This document shows, one piece after another, positions 2,139-7,985 of a stretch of 64,000 nucleotides of DNA. The stretch lies in the IMG/VR virus record IMGVR_UViG_3300005077_001244; one strand, given 5' to 3'. The notes under the pieces were generated by a model. The model did not search any database, had not been told where the DNA came from, and saw only the letters and a list, made by a program, of their open reading frames with translations. Numbering within the stretch: position 1 is the stretch's first letter; each line of letters begins with the position of its first letter. Position numbers and translations under genes: made by a program. The DNA comes from a virus.

Positions 2139-2921
2139 TTACACGCACATTGAATATACATATGATTTCCAATCTTCTTTGAATGTAATTTTTTCTTTAT
2201 CATCAACAATTTTCTTTTGGACACAAGAGCCAAGCCACATACAGCAATCTTCAAAAACTCTAAAATCAAAATGTTTTAATTGATTTTTTTCAACTATTTC
2301 ATCTTTTATAAAATTATATACTTTTTCTTTCCATTTTAAAGGCATATCATGTGGTGGTGCTTCTTCAAGATTCATACCAACCCAATTAAATATTTCTTTA
2401 GATGTTGCAAGTATTTCTATTGGACTTGTTCTACTTAATATACCTTTATCAATTTTTGATCTTTGAATATTAGTTATTATTATTATTTTACTTGTAAAAT
2501 CCATTTTAGGCCTATAAAAACTTTTGCCTTTAACAATTTTGTTTGCTGCGTAAGAAACTCTTCTAACAACTTCATTAGTGGTAGCTGCTCTAAGAATTTC
2601 TCTACATTCTTTATCTGTAATTATAACATTAACGTCATCAAGTAAAATAATCTTATCAGGATTATTATTATCAGCTAAAGTTGTATAAAAAGAAACTGCA
2701 TCTTTAATCCCACCTGAAACTAATTCATAAGAAAGATTCTTACCTTCTCCTCTAAGAAATTCAATTTCATTTTTGATTTCTTCAAGAACTGCAAAACTTT
2801 TTCCGATTCCTGGATTACCCGTGACTAAGCGAGAAATTTTATATCCTCTTGTAACCGCACGAACACTCATACGAACCATTTCAATTTTTTTATCAAGTGT
2901 TAATGTATATTGACTATTCAT
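2139..2921 (-). CDS. AAA-type P-loop ATPase
   Basis: Walker A GNPGIGKS, Walker B IILLDD, SKIIIITN, SRT. Confidence 0.85.
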   Translation of the reverse strand: MNSQYTLTLDKKIEMVRMSVRAVTRGYKISRLVTGNPGIGKSFAVLEEIKNEIEFLRGEGKNLSYELVSGGIKDAVSFYTTLADNNNPDKIILLDDVNVIITDKECREILRAATTNEVVRRVSYAANKIVKGKSFYRPKMDFTSKIIIITNIQRSKIDKGILSRTSPIEILATSKEIFNWVGMNLEEAPPHDMPLKWKEKVYNFIKDEIVEKNQLKHFDFRVFEDCCMWLGSCVQKKIVDDKEKITFKEDWKSYVYSMCV

Positions 2922-3067
2922 TTTTAATTAATATCCTTCTCTTCAGTAATCATAAAATATCCATAATCTTGATATATTTCATCAGAATATTTTTCACCCT
3001 CTAATATTTCAATTCTTACCATACCATCATATACAGATACCATAAATTTTTGTTCATATAGTTCATA

Positions 3068-3319
3068 TTATTTACTTATCCATCTATAATTACATGTAGG
3101 GCAATGATAACTGAAAATATTTCCTTCTAATGCAATATTAATATCATTATTATCACATTTTGGACACATTGGATGTGTATCAATATAATTTCTAAGAATT
3201 ATATTAACTAATGTATCAACATCTATACCACGTTTTTCTGATTCATCTTTTAAAAACTGAATTACATCATCTTCTAAATCAAGTTGAACTTCTACAAATT
3301 CTTCCATATCATCCCCCAA
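3068..3319 (-). CDS. ribbon-helix-helix-like protein with C-terminal Zn ribbon
   Basis: VQLDLEDDVIQFLKDESEKRGIDVDTLVNIIL followed by CPKC...CPTC. Confidence 0.6.
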   Translation of the reverse strand: MGDDMEEFVEVQLDLEDDVIQFLKDESEKRGIDVDTLVNIILRNYIDTHPMCPKCDNNDINIALEGNIFSYHCPTCNYRWISK

Positions 3320-4076
3320 TTCTTTTGTTTGCTATTTCAACATATTCTTCACTAATCTCTGAACCTATAAAATTTCTACCTAAATCTATACAAACTTTAG
3401 CAGTAGTCCCACTACCCATAAATGGATCAAATACTAAATCATCTACATTACTCCATGAACTTATTTGATCTTTTGCAAGTTCTTCACAAAAGGGTGCAGG
3501 ATGTCCTGTCTTTTCTTTTCCTAATGTATATGAAAAAATATTAGGATGGATCTTAACATTTTTAGTTGCTTTGTAGTAAGTTTCATCAGATCTCATAGAT
3601 TGATTAGAGTCAATTTTCTTTCTTCTTTCTAATCCATACTTTTCAACTTTACCTGCATTTTTGCAAGGTATCATTATTGGATTAAATGTTTTTGGTTTAC
3701 CTTTACTTAATACAAACATATATTCAAATGATTGTTCATATCTTCTATGAGTTAATGGAACATAATTAATTTTTTGATATATCATTGTGTCATATAAATT
3801 AAAACCAATTTCTTTAAAATAGAGTGCTTGTCTGAAAGATGTTCCGCTTTCAGAACCATTTTTAGTTTGATCTCCTACTACCCAAACCATTACTCCATTA
3901 TATTTAAGAACTCTGTATAATTCTTTTGCTATTCTTTCAAATTCAAAAGAATAACCATTATATGTTCTAAGCCCATCATAAGGTGGACTTGTGAGTATAA
4001 AATCTATATAGTTATCAGGAAATTGTAACATTAAATCTAAACAATTACAAGTATAAATTTTATTAATTTCAATCAT
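3309..4076 (-). CDS. N4-cytosine/N6-adenine DNA methyltransferase (beta class)
   Basis: TSPPY catalytic motif precedes the FDPFMGSGTT SAM-binding motif; HPAPF. Confidence 0.93.
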   Translation of the reverse strand: MIEINKIYTCNCLDLMLQFPDNYIDFILTSPPYDGLRTYNGYSFEFERIAKELYRVLKYNGVMVWVVGDQTKNGSESGTSFRQALYFKEIGFNLYDTMIYQKINYVPLTHRRYEQSFEYMFVLSKGKPKTFNPIMIPCKNAGKVEKYGLERRKKIDSNQSMRSDETYYKATKNVKIHPNIFSYTLGKEKTGHPAPFCEELAKDQISSWSNVDDLVFDPFMGSGTTAKVCIDLGRNFIGSEISEEYVEIANKRIGG

Positions 4077-4471
4077 ATTGTAAATCTCTTAATTACGTCA
4101 ATAAACTCATCATTTTCTTTAAGATCTTTTGCTTCAATTTCAAGTTCTTTTTTATTTCTAATTACTTTTATTATATCTTGTGATATAAATTCTTTTTTAT
4201 TATTTTTATCATCATATATAATAATTTTATTACTTAATTTACCAAGTGATAAGAAGCGTTCAAATGGCATATCACCCCATCTTTTATCAAGAGGATTAAT
4301 TCTATGAATACCGAGTATATGTGCAATTAATGATGAAGATCCAGAATTATGAACTATTAATTTTTCAATATTATATGAATTATCATCTTCAACATTTAAA
4401 TCATAAACAATTTTAGATTTATTTATAATTGAATCTTTTTTTATTATTTGTGTTAATTTCAATTCTTGCAT
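4073..4471 (-). CDS. dnaE: split DnaE middle fragment: IntC (aa 1-42) + 90-aa DnaE extein
   Basis: VYDLNV...IVHN then SGSSSLIAHILGI...NPL...MPFERFL, matching the DnaE SAAGSLVAYxLGIT..DP...FERFL motif. Confidence 0.9.
   Translation of the reverse strand: MQELKLTQIIKKDSIINKSKIVYDLNVEDDNSYNIEKLIVHNSGSSSLIAHILGIHRINPLDKRWGDMPFERFLSLGKLSNKIIIYDDKNNKKEFISQDIIKVIRNKKELEIEAKDLKENDEFIDVIKRFTI
4346..4471 (-). mobile_element. split intein C-fragment (42 aa) of dnaE
   Basis: block F VYDLNV, block G VHN, +1 residue Ser. Confidence 0.9.
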
Positions 4472-5190
4472 AATTTGTACTCTTTTAATATTTTATAAAG
4501 TGGTTTTTGAGAAATTTTTAATGTTTCTTTTATATTTTTTATTGTTGATTTTTCATTATACATTTTTAAAATAATTTCTTCAAGCTTTAATCTTTTTAAA
4601 TAATTTAAAAAATATGGATTATTAATAGATATACCATTTATTTTTATAGGTTTAATAATTCTTTCAATAATCTTTCTGCTTACAAAGAATTTTTTTGCAA
4701 TTTCTCTTGAAGTTTTACCTTCAAATCTCATTAAAATAATATTATCTAAATCATTATTAGAAAACTTTTTTTTGTTTATTGGGCCATTATTTTCTTTTAA
4801 CCACGCAAACATTGGAATTAAATTTCTATTTTTTTGTTCTTTTCCATATTTTGATAGTTTTATTTTAGTTTTTAAATTATGTTTCCCACCACCATTTCCT
4901 CCATTATTTAAATTATAACCATATAATTTATCATTTGATTTAAAAAATAATATACATTCTTTTTCACAATTATCTAATTCATCTTGTGAATTACAATATC
5001 CAATAACTCTCCATTTAAAATACTTTTCATGTTTTGAATATGAATTTGTAAAATAAGTTTTATATTTAAGATACTTTTTCTTTTTATGGTTTTTTATTCT
5101 TTTTTCGAGCGTTGTTTTAGTTTGCCCAATATATCTTTTATTAGAAAGAGTATTATAAGCTTCATAAATCAATCCATAATAATCATTCAT
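4459..5190 (-). CDS. free-standing GIY-YIG homing endonuclease
   Basis: GLIYEAYNTLSNKRYIGQT, conserved R, E (NCEKECI) and GYNLNNGG; C-terminal HTH-like region. Confidence 0.9.
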   Translation of the reverse strand: MNDYYGLIYEAYNTLSNKRYIGQTKTTLEKRIKNHKKKKYLKYKTYFTNSYSKHEKYFKWRVIGYCNSQDELDNCEKECILFFKSNDKLYGYNLNNGGNGGGKHNLKTKIKLSKYGKEQKNRNLIPMFAWLKENNGPINKKKFSNNDLDNIILMRFEGKTSREIAKKFFVSRKIIERIIKPIKINGISINNPYFLNYLKRLKLEEIILKMYNEKSTIKNIKETLKISQKPLYKILKEYKLCKN

Positions 5191-5488
5191 AATATGCTAT
5201 AAAATCTCCTTCTTCAAGAAATTTTGATTCAATCCATTTTGGTATTCTTATTCCATTTTCATATTCTTTCTTTTTTATTGCAAATATTTTATGGTTATGA
5301 GTTACACCTTCAATATTCTTATTTGAATCTGTTTTAAAACATAATAAAGTTTCATCACAATCATATTTATATGTATTTAATACTTTTTTAAATTTATTTG
5401 TATGTGTTTTAACTATATCACCAATTTTTATATCACATAATTTAACATATCCTTTATTTGTATAAATTTTTACATCACCATTAAAACA
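5183..5488 (-). mobile_element. split intein N-fragment (101 aa) of dnaE
   Basis: block A CFNGDVKIYT, IKIGD, block B GVTHNHKIF, ends LEEGDFI then stop. Confidence 0.9.
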
Positions 5489-6793
5489 TCCTCTACCAGC
5501 ACCTGTTGGTATATTGTTATTTTTTGCATATTCAATAAAATCTGCAAGAATAAGAAAATATGTTGAGAATCCATTAATTTTAATTACATTTAATTCATAT
5601 TTAGCACGTTCAATATATTTTCTTTTTTTAGAAAACCCATAATCTATTAATCCTTGTTTTACTTTTTCGGTTAAAACTTTGTCTGCATTTTCTATGGTTG
5701 GAAGTTTTATATTTGTATCAAGTTCTATATTTTCTATTTTATCATAAATTTCATAATTACCTTTAAATACATCATTAATAAATGGAATTAATTCTTTATG
5801 ATTAATTTTAATATATTCTTTTAATTCTGATTCAGACATATAAAAAGCATCACCAGAAAATTCCCATACTCTTTTAACTTCTTTAATATCAATAACAACA
5901 TCTTTTTTAAAAGTATCACCAATTTTAACATCTTTAGCTAAAAAGCCTTTTCTAAATTCTTTATCAGGTTCAACTTTTTTATATTTAATTTCACCCTTAT
6001 TATTTTCAAATGTAATACCAATATCACTTTTACCAATATCACTTCTAATATTTTTATTTTGTAATAATAATAAATCTTGATGTGCTATTTGAGATTCTTT
6101 ATCAAGGTAATGAGAATCCATACCAATTATCATTGGTATATTAAGTTTTTTTGCAATTTTAATTAATTCTTTATTAGCAGTTATTTGTTCAGGTATTCTA
6201 TTTGCTTGAACTTCTATATAAAAATCATCACCAAATTGTTCTTTCATATTTATTGAATATTTTATTGCTGATTCAATATCATTATTTAATATATATCTGT
6301 TAAGTGTACCACCAAGACATGCAGAAGTAACAATTATTCCATTTTTATATTTAAATAATTCATCATAGGTTATAGTTGGTTTTGTATAAAACCCATTAAG
6401 ATAACCTGAGTTAGCTAATTCAATTATATTGTGAAATCCTGTTTGATTTTTTGCTATTAAAACAATATGGTCATGTTTTTTTATATGATCTCTTTCAAGT
6501 TGAAGTTTTTTCTTTTCATCTTTATCAATATCAGAATCACCTAAAGAATTAATTACTTTAACAATTTCAAGTAATCTATCTCTATGTTGATTTATATATG
6601 CTTCAATGCCAAAGATAGGTTTTATATTATTTTTTTTGCAAATGTTATAAAGTTGAATCCATCCTGCTATACTTCCATGATCGCAGATGGAAAACGATTC
6701 ATTGGATTTAATTGCTTCTGATACTATGTCTTCAATTTTTAGCATAGCATCTCTGGCACTCATGATACTATGAATATGATGTCTAACAAACAT
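5183..6793 (-). CDS. dnaE: split DnaE (Pol III alpha) N-fragment: PHP domain + IntN
   Basis: HHIHSIMS..DA, CDHG, KPIFGIEAY, HIVLIAKN, SACLGG, DSHY, YFLILADF, TGAGRG, then intein start CFNGD. Confidence 0.93.
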   Translation of the reverse strand: MFVRHHIHSIMSARDAMLKIEDIVSEAIKSNESFSICDHGSIAGWIQLYNICKKNNIKPIFGIEAYINQHRDRLLEIVKVINSLGDSDIDKDEKKKLQLERDHIKKHDHIVLIAKNQTGFHNIIELANSGYLNGFYTKPTITYDELFKYKNGIIVTSACLGGTLNRYILNNDIESAIKYSINMKEQFGDDFYIEVQANRIPEQITANKELIKIAKKLNIPMIIGMDSHYLDKESQIAHQDLLLLQNKNIRSDIGKSDIGITFENNKGEIKYKKVEPDKEFRKGFLAKDVKIGDTFKKDVVIDIKEVKRVWEFSGDAFYMSESELKEYIKINHKELIPFINDVFKGNYEIYDKIENIELDTNIKLPTIENADKVLTEKVKQGLIDYGFSKKRKYIERAKYELNVIKINGFSTYFLILADFIEYAKNNNIPTGAGRGCFNGDVKIYTNKGYVKLCDIKIGDIVKTHTNKFKKVLNTYKYDCDETLLCFKTDSNKNIEGVTHNHKIFAIKKKEYENGIRIPKWIESKFLEEGDFIAYYE

Positions 6794-6822
6794 TTTGTAA
6801 TCTCCGTTGTAAGTTATATTTT

Positions 6823-6831
6823 TATTATATA
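6823..6831 (-). promoter_or_regulatory. TATATAATA -10-like motif upstream of dnaE-N
   Basis: recurrent motif, 29 nt before ATG. Confidence 0.5.
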
Positions 6832-6850
6832 TTTTTGAAAATATTTTTGT

Positions 6851-7111
6851 TTAAAATTTTTTATTAATATAAAAATCTTCTGGTAAATTAGTTATTTCAA
6901 TTTTTATATTTTTTGCTTGTGTTTGTATATAGTCTTTAAAATAATTTAAAAATCCACTAAATAAAGGTGGGAATGTTTTTACATCTTGAAAATCAAATTT
7001 AATTAATTCATAATCTTCATTAACACATTTTTCAAATATATCAAATCCTGTTGATAGTGGGTTTTTAAATATTTTATCATCTTCTTTCAATTGTATATTT
7101 AATATTTTCAT
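6851..7111 (-). CDS. hypothetical protein, possibly STAS-like (DUF4325-type)
   Basis: IKFDFQDVKTF resembles the STAS 'hDhxxV' strand; adjacent to a clear STAS gene. Confidence 0.35.
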   Translation of the reverse strand: MKILNIQLKEDDKIFKNPLSTGFDIFEKCVNEDYELIKFDFQDVKTFPPLFSGFLNYFKDYIQTQAKNIKIEITNLPEDFYINKKF

Positions 7112-7499
7112 CTTTCTTCTCTTTAATAAAATTTATGCAATCTTCTAAAGAAGATCCAAAATATAAATTTGGTATTGGAATTGAATCCATATTTGTTAAT
7201 CTTAATAATTTATTAACTCCTTTTGTTGTGTTAAAACAACATATTAATTTATTATTATTTTTAGCATAAGAAACTAAAGATAATAATAAACCTACACCTG
7301 TTGAATCTATAGAATGAACATTTTGTAAATTTATAATAAAATCTAATTTTATATTTTTATTAATAAAATTTTTGTTTAAACTTTCATTTAAAGCACTAAC
7401 ATTATCAAATGAAATTTTTTCTGCAATTATTTTTAACAATATAACATTATCTAAAATAGTTTCAGTAATACAAGTTTCCATAGCTCTGCCACATCTCAT
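7077..7499 (-). CDS. STAS-domain anti-sigma factor antagonist (SpoIIAA/RsbV-like)
   Basis: IINLQNVHSIDSTGVGLLL with conserved DS(S/T)G phospho-site; VNKLLRLTNM. Confidence 0.85.
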   Translation of the reverse strand: MRCGRAMETCITETILDNVILLKIIAEKISFDNVSALNESLNKNFINKNIKLDFIINLQNVHSIDSTGVGLLLSLVSYAKNNNKLICCFNTTKGVNKLLRLTNMDSIPIPNLYFGSSLEDCINFIKEKKDENIKYTIERR

Positions 7500-7547
7500 G
7501 TTTACCCCCTAAATATTTATATAATCAATATTTAGGGAATAAATTAC

Positions 7548-7985
7548 TTATTTTTTTCCAGTAGACCCATGCCCACCACGATCTTTATTTTTTAATTCTT
7601 TAACTTCTTTAAATTTAATATGAGGCATTTTTTCAATAATTCTAAACTGACATATTCTATCATTTTTTTCGATCTTTGTATCTCTCATTGCAATAGCAGG
7701 AAAAAACCATTGATCATTATCTCCACAATAAGAATTATCAATAACTCCCATACTATTTGTTTGAATGATACCAAAATTTTTAAATGTTGAACTGCGGGGA
7801 ACTACATGTGCTTCATAATTTTCAGGTAATTGCATTGCAACCCCAAGAGGAATAAGTTTAAATTCAAATTGTTTTAGTTCTATTGTTTCTGCTGATCTTA
7901 AATCAATCCAATCACCGATTTGAATCTTTTCAAGTTTTTCTAATTCTTCATCAAAATACTTTATACTAATAATATGAATAGACAT
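7548..7985 (-). CDS. dut: trimeric dUTPase
   Basis: [29 protein letters not shown]. Confidence 0.93.

Follow-up and report, generated by a model that had tools for sequence, protein, structure and literature searches.

The DNA analysed here, IMG/VR virus record IMGVR_UViG_3300005077_001244, is a stretch of 64,000 nucleotides (the window, by which the whole stretch is meant), AT-rich (GC 21-37%) and with nearly all of its genes on the minus strand. Positions 6793-4073 of this strand are filled by three overlapping open reading frames (ORFs) at which dnaE, the gene for the alpha subunit of DNA polymerase III (Pol III), is interrupted by a split intein (Table 1). ORF1 carries the DnaE PHP domain (Pfam PHP, E 7e-35) and the first part of the palm (Pfam DNA_pol3_alpha, positions 3-69, E 3e-14) and runs straight on into an N-terminal intein fragment (IntN). 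ORF2, a predicted GIY-YIG homing endonuclease gene, has its ATG ahead of the ORF1 stop codon, with an overlap of 8 nt, and overlaps ORF3 by 13 nt. ORF3 starts with the C-terminal intein fragment (IntC), which is followed by SGSSSLIAHILGI..FERFL and a 52-residue tail. We regard it as highly probable that the three ORFs form one mobile cassette, IntN/GIY-YIG/IntC, lying in frame in the dnaE of an AT-rich tailed phage at G.GRG/S (here and below a slash marks the junction) and feeding the N-terminal subunit (N-subunit) of a two-gene DnaE.

Profile position 69 of Pfam DNA_pol3_alpha is the last one matched in ORF1, and in ORF3, where residues 43-76 cover positions 66-96, the match sets in again at position 66; thus, the two exteins abut. 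The C-extein completes the nucleotide-binding motif G.GRGS..GSL and ends short of the catalytic PDIDxD. The intein fragments carry the residues expected of class 1: 1- Cys436, the first residue of the intein, directly after GAGRG, 2- a block B TxxH in the form of THNH within GVTHNHKIF and 3- blocks F and G as VYDLNV...LIVHN/S, with a penultimate His, a terminal Asn and Ser at position +1. In fact, C1, T63 and H66 are invariant when this IntN is aligned with the IntN of proteins P0022 and P0054 and with the DnaE intein of Bacillus phage G, and V22, D24, L25, H41, N42 and S43 of the IntC ORF are invariant in three relatives. A profile of the IntN matched the gp41-1 intein in the PDB (E 0.0018). 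Moreover, a two-chain structure prediction of IntN with IntC gave an interface score (ipSAE) of 0.56 against 0.01 for the best control, with contact agreement of at least 94% over three runs and a predicted local distance difference test (pLDDT) of the partner of at least 61; in the calibration of such predictions 51 of 78 solved complexes and 2 of 108 mismatched pairs attained the mark, and scores up to 0.60, as this one, are weak passes. As for ORF2, a GIY-YIG catalytic domain at residues 6-85 (29.2 bits, Pfam cut-off 22.6) and an HTH_7 DNA-binding module at residues 207-236 (28.7 bits, cut-off 23.8) indicate a homing endonuclease with a catalytic domain and a separate DNA-binding module, predicted to cleave the empty site. 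Its ORF sits between the one that ends in IntN and the one that starts with IntC and overlaps both, which is the arrangement of a fractured gene.

Both empty and occupied versions of this site were found. Among the alleles recovered by a metagenome scan, L007 (8702-10264) codes for a continuous protein of 521 aa, 67% identical, that reads GTGRGSAVSSL (..GTGRGSAVSSLVAY..) without interruption, and L006 for GSGRGSGVSSL; identity of the N-extein to these intein-less homologues is 67-68%. A protein search placed the N-subunit protein of ~520 aa in about 55 clusters, and G.GRGS..SSL runs uninterrupted through L007, L006, L036 and about 50 more clusters; among the clusters read, only P0004 (this window), P0022 and P0054 are N-subunits that terminate in an IntN. 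Three metagenomic relatives (L003, L004 and L005) have the same layout of GIY-YIG gene and IntC ORF at 56-68% identity, the IntC ORFs being 65% (P0002, in L003/L004) and 56% (P0003, in L005) identical to the one in the window, each preceded by a homologous GIY-YIG gene. Since the layout is shared by three relatives and intein-less alleles run through the junction, it is not due to chance. In L003 (39-777) and L004, which are two independent assemblies, the GIY-YIG gene is frameshifted into two overlapping frames next to an intact IntC ORF; it appears, from its sequence, to be decaying, which fits the usual decay of homing endonucleases after fixation.

The breadth of the site was measured by an exhaustive phmmer search of 1.84 billion representatives with 41 extein residues plus the IntN as query, which gave 302 representatives at E<=1e-10. 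Within the best 150 of these 302, 26 proteins end 69-109 aa past Cys1, the majority of them at 90-104 aa, right behind a strand of the ..GDYIAE type as this IntN does, and 88 bear contiguous inteins of 134-542 aa (median 420) at GRG/C..HN/S. Counted as protein clusters at 50% identity, this makes at least 26 split N-fragments and at least 88 contiguous inteins, and from such sequence counts G.GRG/S is seen to be a place in DnaE that inteins occupy very commonly, many of them split and many contiguous. Taken together, the empty sites, the same layout in relatives, a contiguous homologue in phage G and this breadth argue that the insertion is a genuine intein.

A first-pass annotation, prepared from the letters alone, had read here an N-terminal DnaE part ending in PTGAGRG/C and continued by a 101-aa IntN with THNH, a GIY-YIG ORF with an 8-nt overlap, and a 42-aa IntC (VYDLNV...VHN) with further DnaE sequence, the joined exteins giving GAGRGSGSSSL, and had recognised in them the fractured-gene layout of a split intein with a free-standing homing endonuclease. 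Each of these elements is indeed present on the minus strand where it had been placed, the exteins being continuous in the empty alleles L007 and L006. The alignment that it proposed with phage DnaE inteins at GRG/S brought up phage G gp329, in which a contiguous intein homologous to this one occupies exactly the same position. Decay of the IntC ORF in close relatives, which it had thought would speak against its proposal, is not what the three relatives show: there the ORF keeps its length and its catalytic residues. The locus is best described as one more instance of a layout already in the literature, at a position where inteins are common.

From these features a mechanism can be proposed. 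The three ORFs would be co-transcribed, as we infer from the lack of any minus-strand terminator-like site in 2900-7600 and from the overlapping start and stop codons; a promoter scan stayed at chance level, and a hairpin over the Shine-Dalgarno sequence of the endonuclease gene was no stronger than in shuffles (z -0.35). ORF1 would yield DnaE(1-435)-IntN and ORF3 would yield IntC-DnaE(38 aa)-tail; IntN and IntC would then associate and splice by the class-1 route (thioester at Cys436, attack by Ser+1, cyclisation of Asn42), releasing a 525-aa protein in which GAGRGSGSSSL is restored. The endonuclease, for its part, would cut the intein-less dnaE of co-infecting relatives, where repair would copy the cassette in (homing). 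It could be objected that the intein no longer splices and that IntN and IntC hold the two pieces together non-covalently. The Pfam intein models do stay under their cut-offs (Hint_2 16.8 bits against 28.4; Intein_splicing 20.5 bits on IntC against 35.8), and the same protein family keeps, at a gene break described below, what looks like a Hint relic without catalytic residues. Nonetheless, Cys1, T..H, His41-Asn42 and Ser+1 are all present and are invariant in relatives diverged to 42-56% identity; such invariance is what selection for splicing would be expected to leave, and we consider the loss of splicing improbable.

Table 1. Coordinates of the dnaE cassette, of a second fractured gene in the window and of bypass-like gaps in relatives (window positions, unless a contig is named)
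Feature	Position	Strand	Description
ORF1	6793..5183	-	536 aa; DnaE PHP, start of palm and IntN; stop codon 5185-5183
dnaE piece 1, N-extein, residues 1-435	5489..6793	-	PHP and first palm part; C-terminus ..NNIPTGAGRG
IntN, C436-E536, 101 aa	5186..5488	-	block A Cys1 (CFNGD); block B GVTHNHKIF; end ..EEGDFIAYYE
ORF2, predicted free-standing GIY-YIG homing endonuclease gene, 243 aa	4459..5190	-	C-terminal helix-turn-helix (HTH) DNA-binding modules
ORF3	4471..4073	-	132 aa; IntC, C-extein and tail
IntC, M1-N42, 42 aa	4346..4471	-	VYDLNVEDDNSYNIEKLIVHN; block F VYDLNVEDDNSYNI; block G LIVHN, then Ser+1
dnaE piece 2, C-extein, S43-S80	4232..4345	-	SGSSSLIAHILGIHRINPLDKRWGDMPFERFLSLGKLS; DNA_pol3_alpha positions 66-96
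C-terminal tail of N-subunit, N81-I132, 52 aa	4076..4231	-	stop codon 4075-4073 overlaps methylase start
N6/N4 DNA methyltransferase gene	3309..4076	-	Pfam N6_N4_Mtase E 8e-46; outside the dnaE system
recA-like N-ORF	17753-17325	-	ends ..AILLSGE, then 23-aa IntN (..LLSGE/CLDRNTKLKIKVDDKFFEFLKNY)
ORF between recA-like pieces	17276-16689	-	Cys-rich N-terminus; no Pfam match
recA-like C-ORF	16701-15217	-	135-aa IntC (SENH, VFDFEV, VHHN), then SGKGKS
Bypass-like gap, candidate	L036:9751-10001		take-off GAU UAG; landing GAC; gap 43 nt; resumes VDSDFG
Bypass-like gap, candidate	L041:1061-1112		take-off GAC UAA; landing GAC; gap 49 nt; resumes TDLG
Bypass-like gap, candidate	L055:1340-1470		take-off GAU UGA; landing GAU; gap 35 nt; resumes IDSD

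The first-pass annotation had spoken of two halves of dnaE, and this part of it has to be given up, as the second piece comprises just 38 aa of DnaE and the 52-aa tail, and the catalytic core belongs to a third gene outside the window. ORF3 terminates 58 aa past FERFL, ahead of PDIDxD, and all relatives end at the same point. When the window was searched by tblastn with the full-length DnaE of GBK1, the N-terminal 397 residues alone were matched. In long related contigs the rest of DnaE is found as a separate gene of ~700 aa with DNA_pol3_alpha, DNA_pol3_finger and HHH_6 domains, the C-terminal subunit (C-subunit). Its gene lies directly downstream of the N-subunit gene with an ATGA overlap in L034, 0.4-3.9 kb away from it in L036-L040, L042 and L043, and directly upstream of it in L031 (7849-11587), a sewage-metagenome contig of ~530 kb, and in the shorter contigs L032 and L033 (36 and 72 kb). 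Because the order is reversed in these last three, the two genes must be independent cistrons, and a frameshift or an intron as the cause of the division is ruled out. Therefore the spliced 525-aa product is the N-subunit only of a two-gene DnaE, and in this phage the polymerase is probably made from three genes. We also considered the 520-aa protein as a stand-alone PHP exonuclease and rejected this, as a C-subunit gene is present, too, in all of the long related contigs that allowed a check.

Regarding the catalytic gene of this phage, the two genes found ahead of the C-subunit gene in L036 have their homologues in window ORFs 1070-294 and 282-61, and because of this synteny the third dnaE gene is expected to start just past window position 1, at about 100-200 nt, on the minus strand. 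Its product is probably P0145, a protein of 672 aa that is 54% identical to the C-subunit of L034. P0145 begins at the same internal Met, past PDIDxD, as does P0148, whose gene contains a hop of the kind described below; since the two start alike, the third gene of this phage is probably interrupted too.

It might also be thought that dnaE was destroyed by the endonuclease insertion, that the pieces are decaying pseudogenes and that another polymerase replicates the phage. The lack of the catalytic core from the 64-kb window and the frameshifted endonuclease gene of L003/L004 could be taken in this sense. Yet the three ORFs are intact and overlap one another, three diverged relatives have an IntC ORF of unchanged length with the catalytic residues in place, the N-subunit family of about 55 clusters is under clear conservation at the protein level, P0145 offers a matching and probable partner, and a Pfam scan of 26 window ORFs showed no other DNA polymerase. 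We hold destruction of the gene to be most improbable.

The second break, that between the N- and C-subunits, has its own peculiarities. In unsplit members of the clade (P0154, P0177, P0182 and P0183), FERFL is followed by about 10 aa and then PDIDxD, with neither the tail nor a leader; in P0161 tail and leader are fused as an insert of ~65 aa. In about 55 protein clusters the tail keeps the pattern KIxIxDxxGxKxEFxExDxVxxxRxxxxxxIxAxxLxEGDE, and in about 45 clusters the C-subunit starts with a leader of 13-21 aa, M.IK.I.I.KPE.S[WYF]PD, without His-Asn. In the family FERFL is followed by any of S, D, N, A, Q and T, with no conserved nucleophile; as such a nucleophile and the His-Asn are both missing, tail and leader cannot splice. 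For the same reasons we rejected the idea that the tail could be the IntN of a second intein, atypically split and still functional.

The likeness of these extensions to an intein came from both profile and structure searches. Searched against the PDB, the tail profile found intein block-B regions as its two best matches (9hth_A, E 0.002; the Mja TFIIB mini-intein 5o9j_A, E 0.016). An AlphaFold2 model of the fused P0161:459-565, built on a 52-sequence alignment, had a mean pLDDT of 87.7 (97-98 in the tail), with one strand added by the leader. Foldseek against the PDB returned for this model inteins and Hedgehog Hint domains in 23 of the 23 first ranks (best E 0.025, probability 1.00), and VIA-align, which is independent of Foldseek, in 27 of 27, with 5bkh_A as the best local fit (Z 8.0, root-mean-square deviation 1.8 A over 57 residues, model 15-71 on intein 73-138). 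The E- and Z-values behind this are moderate, and hhalign of the tail profile against the IntN profile of the window was not significant (probability 14%). In our reading, the modelled tail and leader make up the central half of a Hint fold, from the block B strand over the canonical split point to the first IntC strand, with no catalytic residues, and are hence the probable fossil of a second split intein that would now serve as a non-covalent docking module.

Another origin has to be weighed at this point. Tail and leader may be ordinary extensions left by a cassette of the MobA/MobE type, as in T4 gene 39/60 and Aeh1 nrdA, their likeness to Hint being a convergent small beta-sheet. Across the family the second break does bear the marks of such split genes, with extensions on both pieces, an endonuclease between them in some and a fusion in P0161, the window itself showing the tail only; the split layout matches the MobA element of topoisomerase genes (bioRxiv 10.1101/2022.08.31.505936), L040 and the P0164 place have endonuclease genes between the two pieces, and bypass-like gaps occur elsewhere. 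The insignificant hhalign comparison points the same way, and a VIA-align Z under 8 can reflect a common arrangement. On the other side, inteins and Hint domains fill essentially every top rank in two independent structure searches, the tail sequence profile alone picks intein block-B regions first, and the break between tail and leader coincides with the natural split position of inteins. Convergence thus seems to us an unlikely explanation, if a serious one.

The active-site motif next to this break is a frequent place of interruption in relatives of the phage. In L040 (909-7959) the N- and C-subunit genes are separated by two GIY-YIG(+HTH_7) genes, 28-38% identical to ORF2, which gives the second break a fractured layout with no intein. 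At the P0164 place a GIY-YIG gene is followed by a 32-aa ORF, a 100-nt gap and the C-subunit, as in the mobA/gene 60 arrangement. The IMG/VR phages L038 (5693-5932) and L039 (5694-5935) have a group I intron that ends right before DIDSD (Rfam RF00028, 55 and 58 bits, over the gathering score), and Bacillus phage G (L002:7170-8370) has between ..KLP and DIDIDF a 1.2-kb insert with the GIY-YIG gene gp330, in which Rfam found no group I intron.

In L036, L041 and L055 the interruption takes another form (Table 1). The leader ORF ends with an Asp codon and a stop, and the polymerase sequence is taken up again in a different frame, following a second Asp codon, none of the gap lengths being divisible by 3. 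Each of the three has a hairpin that begins on the stop codon or close to it (a 13-bp stem in L041, with -23 kcal/mol for the gap segment and z -5.5 for an 86-nt stretch), an A/U-rich spacer and AGG or GG 6-8 nt ahead of the landing codon. There is no start codon near the resumption in L036 and L041, L055 has AUU just past the landing codon, and the first AUG comes 12-36 codons downstream. Because these features are those listed for gene-60-type cassettes, the three gaps within PD/IDxD are candidates, on their sequence, for a ribosomal bypass like that of T4 gene 60. The preprint of Manning & Atkins (bioRxiv 10.1101/2022.08.31.505936) found such bypass cassettes in topoisomerase genes only.

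In the reading that we favour, the 52-aa tail relic of the N-subunit most likely zips together with the 13-21-aa leader of the separate ~700-aa catalytic subunit, which holds the PDIDxD palm, the fingers and the helix-hairpin-helix (HhH) part. Several points weigh against this reading of the locus: the Pfam Hint and intein models fall under their cut-offs for both intein fragments, the weak pass of IntN with IntC could reflect the memory of the prediction model for solved split inteins, splicing and endonuclease activity are both predicted from sequence, the assignment of P0145 to this genome leans in part on synteny with L036, and docking is derived from one AlphaFold2 model of a naturally fused homologue (P0161). 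Perhaps, going further, a live split intein joins the first two pieces of this DnaE, the catalytic subunit is docked by a fossil split intein, divided at the canonical split point and deprived of blocks A, F and G, and the catalytic mRNA needs a gene-60-type hop inside PD/IDxD. We propose this composite tentatively and give it somewhat short of an even chance. If the composite is true, this gene records three successive attacks of homing endonucleases on catalytic motifs and three different mechanisms of rescue.

The locus shows that the "dnaE" of this phage clade is a two-subunit enzyme. A subunit junction in the form of a split intein that has lost splicing and kept association would be a natural route from a fractured gene to a permanent heterodimer, and with the bypass-like gaps in relatives, recoding of the gene-60 type would reach a second enzyme and, within it, the active-site motif. 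The intein itself adds to the toolbox a natural split pair of 101 + 42 aa with Cys1 and Ser+1.

Other features of the window deserve mention. A second fractured gene lies at 15217-17753 on the minus strand, a recA/uvsX-like gene split in its P-loop (Table 1), whose intein appears from its sequence to be atypically split (23 + 135 aa). As the dnaE and recA-like pairs stand in the same replication module, they are a candidate for a naturally orthogonal set. The methyltransferase gene that follows dnaE shares an ATGA overlap between its ATG and the stop of the IntC ORF; its absence from the corresponding position in L006, L007 and L036 marks it as a recent arrival between dnaE and the Zn-ribbon/AAA ATPase genes. 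Farther upstream of dnaE, as the second gene after an 86-aa ORF, comes a STAS-domain protein of the anti-sigma-factor antagonist type (7077-7499, minus strand; Pfam STAS E 1.7e-8), and L031 has a STAS gene near dnaE as well. What goes beyond routine in this window is the three-gene polymerase, the putative Hint-relic tail within the dnaE coordinates and the second fractured gene.

Compared with known systems, the second break resembles T4 gene 39/mobA/gene 60 and Aeh1 nrdA-mobE, where two polypeptides with extensions re-associate non-covalently (Bonocora 2011; Friedrich 2007; Crona 2011, PMC3045599). As in these cassettes, an endonuclease lies between the pieces in some relatives, and in others the second gene contains, a few dozen codons from its start, a coding gap of stop and hairpin whose take-off and landing codons match. 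Unlike them, the host is DnaE rather than a topoisomerase or a ribonucleotide reductase, the extensions are modelled to fold like the centre of Hint, and the window shows the C-terminal extension only.

The naturally split DnaE intein of cyanobacteria (Ssp/Npu) is likewise a class-1 intein of Pol III alpha with Cys1 and a C-terminal Asn. Its split site, AEY/CFN, lies in the C-terminal half of the protein, and the first-pass annotation was right to set the present site apart, the insertion being at DNA_pol3_alpha ~66-69, in the N-terminal palm. The cyanobacterial intein differs as well in having no endonuclease gene, in the location of its halves at distant loci and in its +1 Cys, against Ser here, and Ssp/Npu DnaE was not among the PDB matches of the IntN profile at E<=1. 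Six insertion points have been described in Pol III alpha (Novikova et al. 2016). In Bacillus phage G gp329 (JN638751), the contiguous DnaE intein GPGRG/CFVPG...VHN/SAAGSL occupies the identical insertion point as that of the window and is related to it in both parts (IntN 33% identity, E 6e-14; IntC with extein 47%, E 4e-14). In contrast to the window, it forms a single chain, which has about 125 additional residues at the point where the window intein breaks and carries its GIY-YIG gene, and its dnaE is further interrupted, before DIDIDF.

The closest parallels are the "fractured genes" defined by Dassa, London, Stoddard & Pietrokovski 2009 (PMC2677866), in which split inteins come with free-standing GIY-YIG or Vsr-like endonucleases and which include three dnaE loci from ocean metagenomes, with IntN of 88-105 aa. 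As in those, the host gene is in two adjacent ORFs with an IntN of about 100 aa and a short IntC, an endonuclease ORF lies between the pieces in overlapping frames, the host is a phage-like replication gene and the site is a non-cyanobacterial DnaE site. Of the earlier suggestion of an independently evolved split DnaE intein, the independence from Ssp/Npu stands (by site, by their lack of an endonuclease gene and by their +1 Cys); the arrangement as such had been published in 2009. What sets this locus apart from the published ones is that its host gene codes for no more than the N-subunit of a DnaE that is already divided over two genes, which brings the polymerase to three pieces.

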